From assembly GCA_002293825.1 (NCBI GenBank), contig DBDW01000009.1:26170-90169 (forward strand): a stretch of DNA of 64,000 nucleotides, written 5' to 3'. The translations under genes and the position numbers were made by a program. Under the pieces are notes generated by a model. The model did no database searches and was not told the DNA's origin. It was given only the letters and a program-made list of their open reading frames with translations. This document shows, one piece after another, positions 6,109 through 64,000 of this stretch. The stretch comes from Candidatus Magasanikbacteria bacterium UBA922. Its GTDB lineage: Bacteria > Patescibacteriota > Patescibacteriia > Magasanikbacterales > UBA922. How positions within the stretch are numbered: the first letter of the stretch is position 1; each line of letters begins with the position of its first letter.

Positions 6109-6821
6109 AACCATACATTGAAATCAAAGACGTGACCCATCGGTACGGTACGATCACCGTACTTGATCAAATTTCATGTACGATTGAAAAAGGATCACTA
6201 ACAGCGATTCTCGGTCCAAATGGATCTGGAAAAACCACGCTTGTCCGCGCAATCATGGGACTACTCACACCTGACAAAGGTACCATTACAATTAACGGAA
6301 AAAATCCAAAAGAAATGCGTACAAACATCGGATACGTTCCTCAACAACTGCAATTTGACCGAACACTCCCTATTACCGTCAAAGAATTTTTAGAAGTATA
6401 CACCTGTACAAATACACATCATCAACACAAAGATAGTACACACATTCTTGCTGAGGTAGGACTTACTGAACATATACACCAAAAAATTGGAACCCTCTCA
6501 GGTGGACAATTTCAACGCGCCCTGATTGCACGAGCACTACTTCATAAAAAAGATATTCTCATTCTAGACGAACCATCTGCCGCAATTGATGCCGAAGGAG
6601 AGGAAACACTCTATCAAATGATTGAAAAACTAAACCGCGAACACGGAATCACGTGTATCCTTATTTCTCACGATATTACCATGGTACATCGATTTGCGGA
6701 CTCTGTACTCTGTCTCAACAAAGAAAAAATATGCCAAGGCACCCCATCAGACACTATCACACCAGACGTGCTTAAAAAACTCTATGGTTCAGAAATGGGA
6801 ATGTACCATCACCATCACTAG
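6078..6821 (+). CDS. znuC: Zinc ABC transporter ATP-binding protein
   Basis: Walker A GPNGSGKTT, signature LSGGQFQR, Walker B ILILDEP, and a C-terminal His tail. Confidence 0.8.
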   Translation: MYHMQKKISIKPYIEIKDVTHRYGTITVLDQISCTIEKGSLTAILGPNGSGKTTLVRAIMGLLTPDKGTITINGKNPKEMRTNIGYVPQQLQFDRTLPITVKEFLEVYTCTNTHHQHKDSTHILAEVGLTEHIHQKIGTLSGGQFQRALIARALLHKKDILILDEPSAAIDAEGEETLYQMIEKLNREHGITCILISHDITMVHRFADSVLCLNKEKICQGTPSDTITPDVLKKLYGSEMGMYHHHH

Positions 6822-6824
6822 CCT

Positions 6825-7646
6825 ATGCTGGAATTATTTTCCTATCCATTCATGCAACGAGCACTCCTGTCAGGAATCCTAATCTCGCTTATTTTAGGAT
6901 GGTTAGGCACTTTTATTGTCTCGCGTAAAATGAGTTTTATTGGTGACGGAATTGCACACGCATCTCTCGGTGGTATTGCACTCGCCGTGCTCGTAGGTAT
7001 CGCACCCCTGCCAACCGCGCTCATATTCGGAATACTGCTCGCATGTATCTTATTTACCATCGAACAAAAAACTAATATTGGAACAGATTCGGCAATTGGT
7101 ATTATTTTTACTAGCTCACTCGCTCTAGGTATCATGTTGATAAGTTTACATCAGGGATATCAACCAGAATTGATAAGCTATCTCTTTGGCAATATACTTG
7201 CAATCAGTACACACGATCTCGTGATTACCTTAGTTATAAGCACAATCGCACTTATTGCACTCAGTATATGGAATAACAAACTTATCTTTATCACCTTTGA
7301 TAAAGATGGGGCATATTTATCAGGAATTTCGCCCGCTCGATACGATCTCGCTCTCTATATACTTACCGCACTCTCGATTATCTTGAGTGTAAAACTCGTA
7401 GGTGTCATCCTCGTCTCAGCCCTCCTAATCACTCCAAGTGCTACAGCAAAACTAATCGCACCTTCATTTGCTGCATTCCAAAAAATTGCAATTACACTTG
7501 CATGTATGACTACATGTATTGGTCTACTCATGTCCTACTATCTCGACCTCCCTTCAGGGGCAGCAATCATTTTGACAGGATCTTTCATATTCACACTCAC
7601 GCTCCTCGGTAAAAAAATGAAAATGATATATGACAAACAATCTTGA
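6825..7646 (+). CDS. znuB: Zinc ABC transporter permease
   Basis: Polytopic membrane protein of the ABC-3 family. Immediately downstream of znuC. Confidence 0.75.
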   Translation: MLELFSYPFMQRALLSGILISLILGWLGTFIVSRKMSFIGDGIAHASLGGIALAVLVGIAPLPTALIFGILLACILFTIEQKTNIGTDSAIGIIFTSSLALGIMLISLHQGYQPELISYLFGNILAISTHDLVITLVISTIALIALSIWNNKLIFITFDKDGAYLSGISPARYDLALYILTALSIILSVKLVGVILVSALLITPSATAKLIAPSFAAFQKIAITLACMTTCIGLLMSYYLDLPSGAAIILTGSFIFTLTLLGKKMKMIYDKQS

Positions 7647-9711: not shown

Positions 9712-9822
9712 ATCTAGGCGCCGACCTACTCTCGCCTTGCGACTACCATTGGCGCTGAAGGGCTTAACTGCCGTGTTCGGGATGGGAACGGGTGGACCCC
9801 CTTCGCAAAAAGCACCTAGATT
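9712..9822 (-). rRNA. rrf: 5S ribosomal RNA
   Basis: The reverse complement contains CCCGAACACGGCAGTTAAGCCC and GGTAGTCGCAAGGCGAGAGTAGG 5S core motifs. A flanking inverted repeat (ctgagtacagaatctaggcg / cacctagattctatactcag) forms a processing stem. Confidence 0.85.
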
Positions 9823-9896
9823 CTATACTCAGTTGAATTGAAAAAGTAACAAGCTGTGTAGTTAACAGTCTTCGAAACACAACTCTGTGTTTCTGT

Positions 9897-13232
<3,336 letters not shown>

Positions 13233-59006: not shown

Positions 59007-59035
59007 TTGACAACAGATTGAAAATCACGTACTAT
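59007..59035 (+). promoter_or_regulatory. Sigma70-like promoter for the tRNA gene cluster
   Basis: TTGACA-17 nt-TACTAT ending 8 nt before tRNA-Gly. Confidence 0.5.
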
Positions 59036-59043
59036 ACGGCCTA

Positions 59044-59115
59044 CACAAAACAAGCGGGTATCGTATAACGGCTATTATCTCAGTTTTCCAAACTGATGAC
59101 GCGGGTTCGACTCCC
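59044..59115 (+). tRNA. tRNA-Gly (anticodon UCC)
   Basis: Hand fold: acceptor gcgggta/tacccgc, anticodon stem tcagt/actga with loop tttccaa, T-arm gcggg-ttcgact-cccgc. Confidence 0.75.
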
Positions 59116-59325
59116 GCTACCCGCTCAGGATCTTCATACAAGATCATTGAAATTTTCATTCTTCAGTACCTATCCTGACATGTCGAACAAGGGAAGGGTG
59201 AAACCGTCAGGTTTCACATGCTGAGGAAAGTATTTGAAAACCCGAAGGTTTTCAAAAGAAGAGCGAAGCGATGAGTGAGACTCCCGCTACCCGCTCAGGA
59301 TCTTCATACAAGATCTACATGTTCC
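59099..59325 (+). repeat. 37-bp direct repeat: the tRNA-Gly(UCC) 3' end plus 22 nt of downstream flank, duplicated 190 bp downstream
   Basis: gactcccgctacccgctcaggatcttcatacaagatc is present at 59099-59135 and again at 59289-59325. The spacer contains two perfect hairpins, gtgaaacc..ggtttcac and tttgaaaacc..ggttttcaaa. Confidence 0.7.
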
Positions 59326-59405
59326 AGCACTTCCTGATCACACATCGGAACCACATCAAAAAATGCTGGTAAAAATGAGATAAAGGACGTACAATATATA
59401 CACAT

Positions 59406-59479
59406 CGCGGGGTAGAGCAGCCAGGCAGCTCGTCGGGCCCATAACCCGAAGGTCGGGGGTTCAAATCCCTCCCCCGCAA
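59406..59479 (+). tRNA. Initiator tRNA-fMet (anticodon CAU)
   Basis: Near-identical to E. coli tRNAfMet, with the C1xA72 mismatch and three G:C pairs closing the anticodon stem (tcggg/cccga). Confidence 0.85.
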
Positions 59480-59502
59480 CAAAGGATCTCACAATTTAGA
59501 AT

Positions 59503-59576
59503 GCGGTAGTAGCTCAGTTGGTTAGAGCGTCTCCTTGCCAAGGAGAAGGTCGCCAGTTCGAATCTGGTTTACCGCT
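59503..59576 (+). tRNA. tRNA-Gly (anticodon GCC)
   Basis: Hand fold: acceptor gcggtag/ttaccgc, anticodon stem tctcc/ggaga with loop ttgccaa, T-arm gccag-ttcgaat-ctggt. Confidence 0.8.
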
Positions 59577-59578
59577 CA

Positions 59579-59702
59579 GTGAATTGTTTACAATTCACGT
59601 TTGGTATGGTAACATATCAGACATACACATGGGATTAGAAATTGTCCCCTACTGTATGGCCAACGCAAAATCCACCCAAAAGGGTGGATTTGTGTTTTAT
59701 TG
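59579..59702. terminator. Two terminator hairpins after the tRNA cluster
   Basis: gtgaattg-ttta-caattcac at 59579-59598. aaatccaccc-aaaa-gggtggattt followed by TTTTATT at 59669-59702. Confidence 0.5.
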
Positions 59703-59714
59703 AGGCCATGTTTA

Positions 59715-61274
59715 TTACCGAAGCAAACGCCTTTTCAAAGAAAAATAGCGATACCACCCACCACACATTGCCACAAACAAGACAACGAATGAACCTCCCA
59801 CAAACAATGGACTTGAAATAAAATTCCAAACTTTCATAGTACGCGTAATCTGCATCTCACGCACCTCTACTTGATGGACCACAGATCGCGGACCAAGCTC
59901 ATCAAAAGCTCCCAGCACTTGCATCGACAATTCATACACACCTGTGGACAAAATAGGGTCACTTACAAACAAAAAGTTTCCCTCTGTATCAGTTTCAATA
60001 ACATATGTTTCTATTTTTCCACCAGGAGTCTTCAAAGAAACATGAATTTTTGCATTCGAATATGAAACCACCCCTCGTGCATACACATTTTCACCTACTA
60101 CAATAGGATACAATGTATTGAGAATGCGCGGAGTAAACAATGGCGGAACTACTATTGAAAAAATTTGTTCACGGAAATTCCCTGCTTTATCATACACAAC
60201 TACCCGAATTTTCTGCTGACCTAATATAGTATCAGGCACAGTCAAAGAAGTTCCCAGAGCCCCTTCCCCCATACGCACCATGGAACCATCGTCAAAAAAG
60301 ATTTCATAAAAATTCACACCAGAAACACCATCAGTGGCCTGAAGAGAGATTAGCACACGCTCAGAATCTTTATCTTCTTGCAGAGAAAGGTTCTCAGGAA
60401 TACCTGTATCCACCTGTATCGCATAACTAGCTACAGGCGACCATACATTATTTTTTCGATATCTGATAGTAAAATACCAGACACCGTCATCAGAAAGGAT
60501 TATTTCTTGTGAAGAATTTTTTACAGACACCTCAGTAGTAGGAATAAATCCCGGCTCTCTACTTACCCCAAACTGAAGATTTTGTAAATTTTGCAAAATG
60601 TTCCATTCCATTTTCACTTTTCTACTGTTATACCAAAAATTTTGATTCGAGTGTGTAGGAGAAGAAAGAGATAGTGTGGAAAGCTGTTCAGGCACATTTT
60701 TATTAATCTCAGTCGGCAGTGGTTTGGATACAGCGGGAATAGAAGGAAGTACTGCTTGTTCTGGCTTAGTCACTTCTTGAACATCAATCAAAATTGAGGC
60801 AGAACCAGCCCCTTGAAAAATATTTGTACCAAGGCCATCATTTTCTCGTATTGAGGCACCCGAGATTGCAAATGAAGCAGTGCCTGTTTTTTTTGTCTTA
60901 AAAGTGACAGAAAAAATCTCACCAACACCACTAAAACCCGGATTAACAACTCCACCATTAAAAGATATAAGGCCCGAAGCGTTTGAAAAATTTGGGCTCT
61001 CTACCCACAATGAAAAAATTGATTTCCCAGTGTTCAACGATGTTACCTCAACCAAATCTGCAGGAAAGGTGATCACAGCTTCAGCGTTATTAATAAATTT
61101 TTCTTTCGTATTTATCACAACACGAAGCGTAAAAGAATCCCCCTGAGTTACACGCGTAGCAGAAACAGTCGCCCCCATAGTCGCAGCAAAAACACGTTCA
61201 GTAAAATAACCAAAAAACAAAAGAAAAAATCCTAGAAAAAATAAATAAAAAACACGCGAATAAACCTGTTTCAT
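59715..61274 (-). CDS. Cell-surface protein with an N-terminal cohesin-like domain, Ig-like middle region and a C-terminal TM anchor
   Basis: Signal/TM at the N-terminus. The cohesin-like beta-sandwich stretch is ...FTLRVVINTKEKFINNAEAVITFPADLVEV.... C-terminal hydrophobic anchor plus basic tail. Shares a YDKAGN motif with the adjacent paralog. Confidence 0.5.
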   Translation of the reverse strand: MKQVYSRVFYLFFLGFFLLFFGYFTERVFAATMGATVSATRVTQGDSFTLRVVINTKEKFINNAEAVITFPADLVEVTSLNTGKSIFSLWVESPNFSNASGLISFNGGVVNPGFSGVGEIFSVTFKTKKTGTASFAISGASIRENDGLGTNIFQGAGSASILIDVQEVTKPEQAVLPSIPAVSKPLPTEINKNVPEQLSTLSLSSPTHSNQNFWYNSRKVKMEWNILQNLQNLQFGVSREPGFIPTTEVSVKNSSQEIILSDDGVWYFTIRYRKNNVWSPVASYAIQVDTGIPENLSLQEDKDSERVLISLQATDGVSGVNFYEIFFDDGSMVRMGEGALGTSLTVPDTILGQQKIRVVVYDKAGNFREQIFSIVVPPLFTPRILNTLYPIVVGENVYARGVVSYSNAKIHVSLKTPGGKIETYVIETDTEGNFLFVSDPILSTGVYELSMQVLGAFDELGPRSVVHQVEVREMQITRTMKVWNFISSPLFVGGSFVVLFVAMCGGWYRYFSLKRRLLR

Positions 61275-62194
61275 GCAAGTGTTTTAGAACGCATATTTCG
61301 TCTTTTTTTCACAAAGACAAAACTTATTAGAAAAACAAGTATCAAAACAGCGCCCAATACAAACCAAGGCATGTTCCCATCAGATATCTCACGAGGCACA
61401 AATTCAACAACTCGACGATTTCCTGCTTTATCAAAAGCAACAATCTCAACACGAGAGGTTCCATCCTGATTCTGAAGCACATATTCAGATCCAGATCGCA
61501 CTGACACAAAACCATCTTCAGTTATCTGAAGATAATCAATACCAGATTCTTCGTCACGCACCTCAATAGACAAAAATAATTGCCCACCAAAAAGACTAGG
61601 ATCGCTTCCTAGAGTTGCCTGAAGTACTGAAGGAGGAGTATTATCACTCGCAATCATCTCTCGAAGCATATCTTTACGCTCTCCATCTTTTTCTACAGAA
61701 ACAATATCCAATACCAAAGGAGTAAAATCTACTGCTTGTACAGTGCCGGCACCATTATGTAAATATGCAATCAAATCAACCGCACTAATCTCTAAACGCC
61801 CTTCTTTCTGACCTTCGAGCGCCAACGTAAAGACTTGGGCACCATCACTCTTAACACCTCCTGGCTCACCCGCTACAAAGGAAATAGAATGATCCTGTGA
61901 AGACCATGATGGTTTTCGAGACCACAAAGAAAATTGGCTCCCTCCGACACTAATTTCTCTCACTCGCACACTCTCAAAATCACCATTAAAACGAAGAGAT
62001 CCTTCGAGAACATTTATTTCTGCACCTTGTGTATTTATTCGAACAGTTACAAGCACGGTATCTCCAATCTGGAAGACTGACTCATCTACACCTACCTGCA
62101 ATAGCGCTCCATATGCCGGCGTACCTGAAAAAATAAACACTATAAATAATGCACAAACACACAAACACTTTTTTATCAAAAAGGAAGTAAACAT
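61271..62194 (-). CDS. Cohesin-like domain surface protein with a C-terminal TM anchor (paralog of the downstream gene)
   Basis: N-terminal signal, then LLQVGVDESVFQIGDTVLVTVRINTQGAEINVLEGSLRFNGDFESV, which is cohesin-like. C-terminal TM plus KKRRN. Overlaps the next gene by 4 nt (operon). Confidence 0.5.
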   Translation of the reverse strand: MFTSFLIKKCLCVCALFIVFIFSGTPAYGALLQVGVDESVFQIGDTVLVTVRINTQGAEINVLEGSLRFNGDFESVRVREISVGGSQFSLWSRKPSWSSQDHSISFVAGEPGGVKSDGAQVFTLALEGQKEGRLEISAVDLIAYLHNGAGTVQAVDFTPLVLDIVSVEKDGERKDMLREMIASDNTPPSVLQATLGSDPSLFGGQLFLSIEVRDEESGIDYLQITEDGFVSVRSGSEYVLQNQDGTSRVEIVAFDKAGNRRVVEFVPREISDGNMPWFVLGAVLILVFLISFVFVKKRRNMRSKTLA

Positions 62195-62203
62195 ACAGAA
62201 AAA

Positions 62204-64000
62204 TTATTTTTTGGCATCCCATTCATACATCAAAATTGAAAAATCAACAGAATCTACACGACCATCAGCATTGATATCTACATACAAATTACGGAACGGT
62301 GGTGATGTCCTCCAAAAAGCAAGTAAGATAGAAAAATCAACTGAATTTACTTTTGTATCACGGTTAAAATCAGCTCGCTTATATGTAACATTGGTACTGG
62401 TATTTGTCTGAATCAATGGTGGAACAAATCCGGCTCCACCACCTCCACCACCCGACGGAGGCGTGGGAGGAGTCGTACCAGTAGCCGCAAATGTTCGCGA
62501 AGCACTGGATGATTCATCGCCAAAGTACACCACTAATTTAAAAAAATAATTACCTGCCTGAGGCACAGTAGCGCTTAAAACAGTATTAAAATCTTCACCA
62601 GGATTAATAAATTTTGCCGCAGAAGCATAATATACATCATTATTTCCACCACACGCATTTTCAACACTGGTCACCACGCACCATTCGTACTGATACTCAT
62701 ATCCACTCAGACCTTCATTAGTAATCGTGACATTTGCTGCAATTGTAGGAATTGTGGTATCAGAAACCGTATTAATCAATACCTGAGCAGGAGAAGACCC
62801 TACTGCCCAATAATCATTGGTTTGCAATGTTTTACCTACTTCTACCACAGAAGATATCACTGACTCCCAAAGACCGCCCTCAGCTCCATTTGGAACAGAA
62901 TAGGTGTATTCATACACTCCTGTACTCACAGGTGTCATTGCAACTCCCGAAACAACAGTGTTTCGAGTTGCATCATAAATAGTAATTGTTGGTGCGGTCA
63001 CCGGATTTGTTGGCTGTGTTTCTTTATTAGAAATAAATATTTTAGCTCGATATGTTTTTCCAGCAGCAATTGAATCCACGTCTGACATTCGAACCGTCCA
63101 CAGTGCATCTTGAGTAACAAGAGATGCTCGTGTGGAAAGCATTACATCCACATTATCCACCAATTGCTTTCCAATCGAACCAACAGTGGTCAAACTAGAA
63201 GACAATACATTCCACACATCAGCAGCAGTGATGTCATTACCATAATTGGTGAGGGTGCGCGCAGCATTACTCCAGACTGCAGCAGAAATTGTAGAAGTTG
63301 AGTAATCAGTGAGTGAACGCGTCGCCGCACTCCACACATCAGCAGCAGTGAGATTACTCGTACCACGAGTAGAGACCTGTGCATCGAGATTGTCAACAAT
63401 CAATTTTCCAATACTCCCAAATGAGGTCAGCGTATCAACACCTACTGACCATAAATCCTGAATAGAAGAACTTGTAAACTCAACGGTCGTTGAAACGGTT
63501 CTACCCGCATAGCTCCACACATCCGCAGCACTAATATTATTGAGTGCATTAATGAGTGCTCGATTTGCAAGTATTTCATCTAAAATTCGAGTGGTTGAAA
63601 CCGTCGTATTATCCGCCAACTGTTTTCCAATCGATCCAACACTAGTCAAACTAGAAGACAATACATTCCACACATCTGCTGCGGTGATGTCATTGCCATA
63701 GTTGGTGAGGGTGCGCGCAGCGTTACTCCAGACTGCAGCAGAAATTGTAGAAGTTGAGTAATCAGTGAGTGAACGCGTGGGAGCACTCCACACATCAGCA
63801 GCAGTGAGATTACTCGTACCACGAGTAGAAATTTGAATATCCACATTCTCTCCCAACTGTTTTCCAATTGATCCAACAGTAGTCAAGGCACCTGTAGGTA
63901 CAGACCAAATTGCAGACGCAATACTGGTTGTCGAATAATCCGTGAGAGATCGTGTGCCTGCCTGCCACACATCAGCAGCAGTGAGATTACTCGTACCACG
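62204..64000 (-). CDS. Large tandem-repeat protein with a C-terminal type-I dockerin module. Its N-terminus lies beyond the window end.
   Basis: The C-terminus has two dockerin Ca-binding segments, DFNRDTKVNSVDFSILLAFW and DINADGRVDSVDFSILMYEW, preceded by a TPPTPPSGGGGGG linker. Upstream there are three or more copies of a roughly 152-aa repeat (TAADVW..TRSLTDYS..). Confidence 0.6.
   Translation of the reverse strand, partial: RGTSNLTAADVWQAGTRSLTDYSTTSIASAIWSVPTGALTTVGSIGKQLGENVDIQISTRGTSNLTAADVWSAPTRSLTDYSTSTISAAVWSNAARTLTNYGNDITAADVWNVLSSSLTSVGSIGKQLADNTTVSTTRILDEILANRALINALNNISAADVWSYAGRTVSTTVEFTSSSIQDLWSVGVDTLTSFGSIGKLIVDNLDAQVSTRGTSNLTAADVWSAATRSLTDYSTSTISAAVWSNAARTLTNYGNDITAADVWNVLSSSLTTVGSIGKQLVDNVDVMLSTRASLVTQDALWTVRMSDVDSIAAGKTYRAKIFISNKETQPTNPVTAPTITIYDATRNTVVSGVAMTPVSTGVYEYTYSVPNGAEGGLWESVISSVVEVGKTLQTNDYWAVGSSPAQVLINTVSDTTIPTIAANVTITNEGLSGYEYQYEWCVVTSVENACGGNNDVYYASAAKFINPGEDFNTVLSATVPQAGNYFFKLVVYFGDESSSASRTFAATGTTPPTPPSGGGGGGAGFVPPLIQTNTSTNVTYKRADFNRDTKVNSVDFSILLAFWRTSPPFRNLYVDINADGRVDSVDFSILMYEWDAKK
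63183..64000. repeat. Tandem 456-bp coding repeats (about 95% identical cores) inside the dockerin-protein gene
   Basis: The roughly 200-bp core beginning at 63183 recurs beginning at 63639. A third partial copy lies near 63940-64000. Confidence 0.7.

Follow-up and report, generated by a model that had tools for sequence, protein, structure and literature searches.

A structured two-hairpin module followed by a copy of the adjacent tRNA 3' end behind tRNA genes of Patescibacteria

A structured module of about 97 nt, located directly in front of a copy of the 3' end of the adjacent tRNA gene, was identified in five lineages: the window (the whole 64,000-nt stretch of DNA that was analyzed), L007, L008/L009, L015, and L014. 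In four of these lineages the module is located behind the gene for tRNA-Gly(UCC), which is represented by two sequence variants, and in L014 behind the gene for tRNA-Lys(UUU). As the best explanation, we propose that the unit in the window belongs to a small family of inserts in Patescibacteria. It may be a miniature, non-autonomous insert that targets tRNA genes, including a regenerated tRNA, a displaced fragment, and a core working as a folded nucleic acid; this is the reading that we place first, with a confidence that falls somewhat short of even.

The repeated tRNA 3' end and its operon

The source organism is a Patescibacteria (CPR) bacterium, and the best named relatives of its EpmA protein are from Magasanikbacteria/Patescibacteria. 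The neighboring genes in the window code for EF-P, the EF-P lysine aminoacylase EpmA, RuvB, and a class II ribonucleotide reductase. The tRNA operon is preceded by a promoter-like site on the plus strand (TTGACA-17-TACTAT, 59007..59035), which is kept in L007, and starts with an intact tRNA-Gly(UCC) gene on the same strand (59054..59126; identified by ARAGORN and by the Rfam tRNA model with 59.2 bits), in which the T-loop TTCGACT is located at 59106-59112 and the discriminator U at 59125. The downstream members of the same operon are tRNA-Met(CAU) (59406-59480) and tRNA-Gly(GCC) (59503-59577), both on the plus strand and together within 59406..59577. Two terminator-like sites were identified, at 59579-59598 and 59668-59691, both 3' of tRNA-Gly(GCC). 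Since none was detected between the promoter-like site (59007..59035) and position 59579, the module is probably co-transcribed with the tRNA operon, as judged from these sequence signals.

The 37-nt sequence GACTCCCGCTACCCGCTCAGGATCTTCATACAAGATC forms an exact direct repeat with exactly two occurrences in the window, 59109-59145 and 59279-59315. None of the shuffled sequences contained two matches to this 37-mer, the expected number being 0.00. The period of the repeat is 170 nt from start to start, and the spacer is 133 nt in length (59146-59278). Copy 1 (59109..59145, plus strand) is composed of the last 17 nt of the tRNA (59109-59125), starting at G57 of the T-loop directly after GGTTC and ending at the discriminator U, and of a 20-nt trailer, which includes the hairpin GATCTT-CATAC-AAGATC (59129-59145, plus strand). 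Copy 2 (59279..59315, plus strand) represents a displaced or mimicking tRNA 3' end together with the trailer hairpin, so that each copy has its own 6-bp hairpin, GATCTT/AAGATC. A sequence-only reading of this DNA had already recognized the exact 37-nt duplication of the tRNA-Gly(UCC) 3' end, its composition of 17 nt of tRNA plus 20 nt of flank, and the presence of two perfect hairpins in the spacer, all of which were confirmed, the hairpins being located as stems of 8 bp and 10 bp (see below); its coordinates (59099 and 59289-59325) were wrong by 10 nt, and its distance of 190 bp and spacer of about 150 bp are replaced by the 170 nt and 133 nt given above.

The similarity between the two copies ends sharply at 59109 and 59279, the preceding 9 nt matching at only 3 of 9 positions. 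This boundary bears on the reading of copy 2 as a pseudo-tRNA, which would have arisen by tandem duplication of the tRNA gene and then decayed, its 5' two-thirds having drifted. The direct orientation and the joint duplication of tRNA 3' end and trailer agree with such a duplicate, but the similarity stops abruptly at G57 without any gradual fade, no tRNA was called at the second copy by either ARAGORN or Rfam, and the sequence upstream is the same non-tRNA module as that located behind different tRNAs. The pseudo-tRNA reading is hardly credible, being refuted by this sharp boundary and by the module common to the tRNA-Lys and the variant tRNA-Gly loci.

The arrangement is 100% identical in two JGI assemblies (L001/L028 and L002/L030) and one ENA assembly (L029), and is present in four or five independent assemblies. 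In the Logan assembly at k=31, one contig stops exactly 30 nt into copy 1 and another starts exactly 30 nt before the end of copy 2, as predicted for a 37-nt exact repeat at this k value. An artefact of assembly is excluded for the repeat arrangement. A tandem island would be marked by a third copy of the tRNA end, which was detected neither in the window nor in L014, and an extension of the duplication past the identity block, as expected for a long target duplication from a staggered cut, was not seen (p=0.12-0.81).

The order EpmA (minus strand), tRNA-Gly(UCC), tRNA-Met, and tRNA-Gly(GCC) is kept in most of the relatives sampled; in L020, L022, and L026 the tRNA cluster is located farther from EpmA and in the opposite orientation. 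Several other features were observed around this cluster. The region of about 120 nt located 3' of tRNA-Gly(GCC) (59578-59700, plus strand) is conserved throughout the eight relatives compared; four helices are predicted therein by RNAalifold, the last of which is the operon terminator, and seven pairs stay paired despite changes on both sides. Its sole Rfam match is rnk_pseudo, with 24.9 bits against a threshold of 55. To the right of the cluster (59700-64000), the genes vary across L003, L007, L008, L010, L011, and L013, forming a synteny break and a variable region: proteins of 519 aa and 307 aa and a dockerin protein are encoded in the window, an Rce1-like protein in L003, a GC-rich 152-aa ORF in L008, and tRNA-Pro/Phe/Ala in L010 and L011. 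The gene for the dockerin-type surface protein (62204-63970, minus strand) includes internal direct repeats of about 260 nt with 88% identity at 63152-63868, and its length differs among otherwise identical assemblies (875 aa versus 1027 aa as called). Elsewhere in the window, the 23S rRNA match (9891-13226, minus strand) covers 3336 nt against a model of 2925 positions, giving an insertion of about 400 nt; a 5S rRNA gene (9713-9819, minus strand) adjoins it, and no 16S rRNA was found in the window.

In L020 (minus strand, about 1600-1800 nt upstream of EpmA) and at the same position in L022, a partial duplication of a tRNA 5' end was observed, in which the first 13 nt or so of tRNA-Ala(UGC) (GGGCCAGTAGCTC) are repeated upstream of the gene and followed by a GC-rich hairpin-forming insert.

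A structured module in five lineages

In the window, copy 1 is followed by a lineage-specific linker (59146..59181, plus strand) and then by the conserved module of about 97 nt (59182..59278, plus strand), which is composed of GTCGAACAAGGGAAGG, hairpin P1, ATGCTGAGGAAAG, hairpin P2, and AGAAGAGCGAAGCGATGAGTGA. The consensus of the five lineages is (G/A)TCGAACAAGGGAAGG, P1, NTGCNGAGGAAAG, P2, and a purine-rich stretch with the end (G/C)AGTGA. P1 (59198..59217, plus strand; GTGAAACC / GGTTTCAC) has a stem of 8 bp between 59198-59205 and 59210-59217, which is invariant, and its loops in the five lineages are GTCA, GTAA (three times), and GTGA. P2 (59233..59256, plus strand; TTTGAAAACC / GGTTTTCAAA) has a stem of 10 bp between 59233-59242 and 59247-59256, of which the three outer pairs are altered on both sides with the pairing kept (UA, CG, AU, GC). 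A standard pair is formed in 100% of the cells of the five-lineage alignment of P1 and P2, and sliding the partner abolishes the pairing. The module is under selection for structure, because all cells pair, three pairs of P2 have changed on both sides, and the covariation score was reached by none of 500 shuffles. In addition, the plus strand folds far better than its shuffles (z = -5.8).

The cues to the functional strand are in conflict. Four of the five P1 loops are of GNRA type on the plus strand, whereas in three lineages the P2 loop is UUCG on the minus strand, so that the transcribed strand is not fixed by the loops. A helix between the segment upstream of the module and the tail, i.e. 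the copied tRNA end behind it, is formed in L014 with 10 bp (p<0.001) and in L007 with 7 bp including a G-U pair (p=0.017), and did not reach significance in the window, L008, or L015; the complementarity is thus significant in two of the five lineages, in different registers. Part of the tail is enclosed in a helix in L014 and L015.

A covariance model of the module, R1, scored 110-129 bits on the five instances and 15 bits or less elsewhere in the 215 kb searched, with one copy for each module-bearing locus, indicating that the module is not a high-copy element. No Rfam family was assigned to the module by searches of the window, L007, L014, and L015 in both E-value and gathering modes. The sole Rfam match overlapping the module in the window was SNORA52, with 19 bits against a gathering score of 71 (E=0.88), and the weak matches of the L014 copy, ylbH (16.8 bits) and BSnc120 (17.7 bits), were equally far below threshold; self-cleaving ribozymes, tRNA-like, Y-like, and HEARO/omega RNAs are among the Rfam families without a match near the gathering threshold. 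A conserved small ORF is absent from the spacer, the ATG being missing in L007 and the frame being different in L014. A terminator module captured at the repeat, as suggested by the sequence-only reading, was not supported: both P1 and P2 lack a following T-run, and neither was called as an intrinsic terminator. No description of the motif was found in the literature.

Four of the five instances of the module are located at the same orthologous locus. The EpmA protein of L007 is 70% identical to that of the window, with flanking genes 75-80% identical at the DNA level, and that of L008/L009 is 64% identical. L015 carries the orthologous locus, with the EpmA N-terminus upstream, and a different tRNA-Gly(UCC) sequence; its EpmA is less than about 60% identical to that of the window, which is not included in the 25 best matches among 120 listed EpmA proteins, the best being 68% identical. 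The L007 sequence comes from a metagenome-assembled genome (CAZNAO010000001.1) labelled 'uncultured Gammaproteobacteria bacterium'; since its locus is syntenic with the Patescibacteria window and 75-80% identical to it, either this label or the binning seems to be in error.

In all five lineages, the module directly precedes a copy of the 3' end of the adjacent tRNA itself. The tails matching the local tRNA are GACTCCCGCTACCCGCTCTGGGTC in L008, ATTCCGGTCATCCGCTCA in L015, and CCCCAGCCGGATCAC in L014, and the L015 tail bears the same variant bases as the L015 tRNA-Gly. The left boundary of the copy is identical in all five, right after GGTTC of the T-loop, apart from a 1-nt insertion in L014 and L015. 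As reportedly described by Williams in 2002, elements targeting tRNA genes often cross over in the T-loop, the anticodon loop and the T-loop being the preferred sublocations. The duplication is 15-37 nt in length across the five lineages, and the copy reaches 2 to 20 nt beyond the discriminator, into the genomic flank and not into CCA. This flank is lineage-specific and the same in both copies (TCAGGATC in the window and TCTGGGTC in L008), which, together with the lack of CCA, indicates that local DNA was duplicated and not the mature tRNA. A pattern of the retroviral primer-binding-site type was rejected on the same ground, the repeat going on into the genomic flank (CAGG...) and not into CCA. 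The distance from the end of GGTTC to the end of the module is 168-178 nt, and that from the tRNA end to the start of the module is 54-58 nt, in all five lineages; despite this constant spacing, the linker sequences of the window, L008, L014, and L015 are unrelated to each other.

The two copies in the window are identical at 37 of 37 positions, with the hairpin loop CATAC, whereas in L007 the loop of copy 1 is GACAC and the second copy is decayed (GACTCCCGC--CCTGCTCAGGGTC), faint similarity running on for about 45 nt. Perfect copies in the window against a decayed copy in L007 fit either events of different age or re-homogenization.

A shared anatomy of this kind has to be weighed against a neutral scar, left by a large prophage or island that had integrated into tRNA-Gly(UCC) and later lost its interior. 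A scar would explain the direct repeat of the tRNA 3' end, and the tRNA cluster is indeed a synteny break-point with different right-hand genes among relatives. Random deletions, however, would not yield one unit of 168-178 nt with constant boundaries in five lineages and behind two species of tRNA, nor stretches of 25 invariant nucleotides and compensatory changes across lineages with EpmA proteins 64-70% identical (less than about 60% for L015). The neutral deletion scar is thus very unlikely and largely refuted. The sequence-only reading had interpreted the repeats as an att scar of integration into the tRNA gene. The integration-like anatomy and the polymorphic presence (see below) agree with that interpretation, but the 'deletion remnant' is the least likely of the three options it offered, because the same architecture of about 170 nt with a selected module is present in five lineages and at two tRNA species; the 'miniature non-autonomous element' and the 'captured sRNA module' are both retained here.

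A constant module, behind which a segment matches the local tRNA from one fixed position in every case, is also reminiscent of a guide-type RNA, with the module as scaffold, the 3' segment agreeing exactly with the tRNA gene from T-loop position 57, and GGTTC as the adjacent motif. Guides are located at the 3' side in TnpB/Cas12 RNAs, and the short homing crRNA of type V-K CRISPR-associated transposons targets tRNA genes. By this analogy, a conserved scaffold and a target-matching segment are formally present, and the distance between the 'target' and the module is constant. On the other hand, no effector gene was detected at the locus: TnpB, IscB, Cas, and Tn7-like genes are absent from the surroundings of the module in the window and from the ten ORFs scanned around the L014 module, and no gene for an RNA-guided effector is included in the gene tables of L001/L002, L008, L010, L011, and L013. 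The match, moreover, runs into the non-tRNA flank, varies between 15 and 37 nt in length, and is partly buried in a helix in L014 and L015. A guide-type function appears improbable.

Two features near the L014 module were observed in addition. A gene for a large serine recombinase with Resolvase, Recombinase, and zinc-ribbon domains (11167-12807, minus strand) abuts or overlaps tRNA-Gly(CCC) (11171-11242, plus strand) at a distance of 4.6 kb from the module; it is probably unrelated to the module and may represent the edge of an integrated element. Directly 3' of the terminator of the module, a GC-rich island (6600-7130; 57% GC against about 38% GC of the contig) includes a basic, cysteine-rich ORF of 113 aa on the minus strand, for which no match was obtained in Pfam or PHROG, and behind it short tandem repeats (GCACCTGA...). 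Between L014 and L008, the small GC-rich genes close to the module show no relationship, and none of them matched a PHROG.

Loci without the module and the search for a recombinase

About nine further lineages (L003/L005/L006, L010, L011/L012, L013, L024, L020, L022, L025, and L026) have the orthologous EpmA-tRNA-Gly(UCC) locus without the module; among them is L025, which carries the same tRNA variant as L015. The closest module-free relatives, L003/L005/L006, have an EpmA protein identical to that of the window, but lack the second copy and the spacer, leaving about 100 nt between tRNA-Gly and tRNA-Met. Identity between the window and L003 is 98.3% as far as 59134 and 89.5% over 59355-59699; past this point the sequences are unrelated, and L003 has a different gene there. 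In addition, the structured region 3' of tRNA-Gly(GCC) is a mosaic, of which the first half is L007-like and the second half L003-like. Because the right flank is diverged or replaced and the downstream region is mosaic, the difference between the window and L003 in the presence of the module is a recombinational replacement anchored in the conserved RNA genes, with no visible precise excision. A clean empty site with both flanks conserved was not found among the relatives compared, and the insert was present in all four samples with the right flank of the window.

The comparison with related genomes proposed by the sequence-only reading thus revealed polymorphic presence, but no relative with a full element and an integrase between the repeats. 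The same reading named a conserved tandem pseudo-tRNA without polymorphism as the arrangement that would speak against it; relatives do share the arrangement, yet it is polymorphic and not a pseudo-tRNA.

The 133-nt interval between the repeats has no conserved ORF and codes for no integrase, transposase, or other recombinase. A domain scan of 10 unassigned ORFs of the window detected no recombinase domain; the other ORFs of the window, about 57 in number, were judged by eye only and read as housekeeping genes. In L001/L002 and L008, the genes tabulated around the module are housekeeping genes only. Genome and metagenome scans for the module were made with exact patterns; four of the six metagenome matches to a 20-mer (L016-L019) were by chance, with no module there. 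Neither the module nor the att-junction was matched in viral contigs (pattern scans) or in phages and plasmids (BLAST), and no larger autonomous relative carrying the module was found.

The patchy distribution also bears on a rival in which no mobility is involved, namely a host non-coding RNA of the tRNA operon, which would be cut by tRNA-processing enzymes from the tRNA-Gly/module/tRNA-Met/tRNA-Gly transcript and carry a functional tail. This tail is identical to the 3' strand of the T-stem and acceptor stem of the tRNA, and might serve as an alternative partner for the 5' half of the tRNA, or as a decoy for a binder of the tRNA 3' end or trailer; its match to the local tRNA would be kept by selection or gene conversion. 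Such an RNA is in agreement with an operon promoter and module not separated by a terminator, with the compensatory changes in P2 and the GNRA-type P1 loops on the plus strand in four of five lineages, with the orthologous locus in the distant L015, where the tail varies along with the tRNA-Gly variant, and with the complementarity of the pre-module segment to the tail in L014 (10 bp, p<0.001) and L007 (7 bp, p=0.017); another conserved, structured, RNA-like region with covariation ends the same operon. Strong conservation of a host function, however, fits poorly with the loss in about nine of 13 sampled lineages and the decaying copy in L007. The instance behind tRNA-Lys needs a jump to another tRNA together with a newly matched tail, the upstream-tail helix is not significant in the window, L008, and L015, and the UUCG loop of P2 on the minus strand in three lineages leaves the transcribed strand ambiguous. 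A purely host-encoded RNA is possible but doubtful, and we rank the insert about one step ahead of it, the two readings being not mutually exclusive.

With respect to the insert, the first part of the unit, directly behind GGTTC of the T-loop, would be a copied tRNA 3' end plus a short trailer, which leaves the tRNA intact. A linker of conserved length and non-conserved sequence would come next, and the two-hairpin module of about 97 nt would form the end of the unit, with the second copy of the tRNA 3' end directly behind it. As far as the anatomy goes, either copy could have arrived with the insert. Since such a unit carries no cargo, it could not move by itself, and would be inserted by a site-specific recombinase acting in trans; it may also spread between lineages when homologous recombination takes place in the conserved tRNA genes on either side. 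The module would act as a folded single strand, most simply as an RNA co-transcribed with the tRNA operon.

This proposal accounts for an intact tRNA whose 3' end recurs as a direct copy of 37 nt, not explained by chance, for a tail that matches the local tRNA every time, flank included, with more than one tRNA species used, and for the T-loop boundary and fixed distances in all five lineages despite unrelated linkers, as well as for the patchy distribution and for repeats that are perfect in some lineages and decayed in L007. It has to be set against the lack of a recombinase between the repeats or among the window ORFs scanned, of an autonomous relative, and of a clean empty site, and against the low copy number, one in the 215 kb searched. 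Furthermore, four of the five instances are orthologous, so that vertical descent with repeated loss is possible; compensatory changes in hairpins are not predicted for classical double-stranded attP arm sites; and the linker, placed inside the element by this proposal, is not conserved in sequence.

Comparison with known elements and RNAs

After a tyrosine integrase has acted at a tRNA gene, the ends of the element are marked by a regenerated gene and by a displaced fragment, which Islander uses for the finding of islands (PMC4383910). As in such tRNA-targeting islands and prophages, the intact tRNA is followed by a direct 3' copy (a displaced 3' fragment), which in all five lineages has its start in the T-loop and extends beyond the end of the gene; the presence is polymorphic, and changes of gene content are concentrated at the tRNA cluster. 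Unlike them, the copies are only 133-160 nt apart with neither an integrase nor cargo in between, the same miniature size recurs in five lineages, and the interior consists of conserved hairpins with compensatory changes. CIMEs, the cis-mobilisable elements, are flanked by att sites and lack genes for recombination or conjugation (PMC6323972, PMC5704250). The unit in the window likewise is flanked by att-like direct repeats, has no recombination or conjugation genes of its own, and would depend on a related element in trans or cis, but no autonomous ICE or IME with the same att sites was found. Described CIMEs are kilobases long and derived from known ICEs or IMEs; in contrast, this unit is about 170 bp in size, has no known parent element, and resides in a CPR host with a reduced genome.

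MITEs, REP/BIME, and Rickettsia palindromic elements are small palindromic or hairpin-forming bacterial repeats, sometimes located in or next to RNA genes. The unit is similar to these in being about 100-170 bp long, non-coding, and hairpin-rich, but consistent terminal inverted repeats are absent, the target duplication is not short (15-37 nt in place of 2-10 bp), and the unit is strictly linked to a tRNA 3' end and present in one copy and not in many within the 215 kb searched; a MITE was therefore rejected. Non-coding RNAs are processed from tRNA operons, for example the spacer-derived sRNA 3'ETS-leuZ of Escherichia coli, and the module is alike in its location between the tRNA genes of one operon, in its lack of an own terminator, and in its structure. 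It differs from them in a tail that copies the 3' strand of the adjacent tRNA and in its recurrence behind different tRNAs; we know of no tRNA-operon sRNA with either property.

Other candidates were rejected as well. A CRISPR mini-array agrees in repeat length (28-37 nt), but the spacer is 133 nt against about 30-40 nt, the repeat is a tRNA end with two copies only, and no cas gene is included in the gene tables. Insertions of casposons carry a fixed target duplication of 14-15 bp, terminal inverted repeats, and cas1; here the duplication varies between 15 and 37 nt, and neither terminal inverted repeats nor cas1 were found, against an insertion of this Cas1-dependent type. The patterns of hammerhead, HDV-like, integron attC, IS200/IS605-end, and IS91 (GTTC target) were compared by eye, and gave no consistent fit across the five lineages.

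Altogether, among known kinds the unit comes closest to integrative elements that target tRNA genes and to the CIMEs, which are derivatives of these without a recombinase (PMC6323972, PMC5704250). It differs from both in its cargo-free size of about 170 bp, the recurrence of this size, and the selected hairpin core. We regard it as a variant of these elements, with a considerable chance, though well short of even, that it is something more unusual. A mobile unit that recognizes GGTTC of the T-loop through a folded strand and copies the tRNA 3' end, or an RNA with a tRNA-directed switch, decoy, or guide tail, would represent a new class with a 'programmable' end, which we consider a real possibility, though less likely than not; in the RNA form, the tail would be aimed at the very tRNA, or tRNA gene, that had served as its source.

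The tRNA genes are classic landing sites of mobile DNA, and short direct repeats of tRNA ends are usually taken as dead debris. What would pass for 'debris' here is a selected, structured module of about 97 nt, held in a fixed geometry behind different tRNAs in Patescibacteria. As an RNA, it would constitute a family that is not yet catalogued, with a tail that mimics a tRNA. As a mobile unit, it would rank with the smallest known tRNA-gene-targeting units, and would point to a recombinase yet to be identified in organisms with very reduced genomes. Under either reading, the model R1 provides a concrete search motif, and the 'tRNA plus fragment' logic used for the finding of islands will encounter cargo-free cases.
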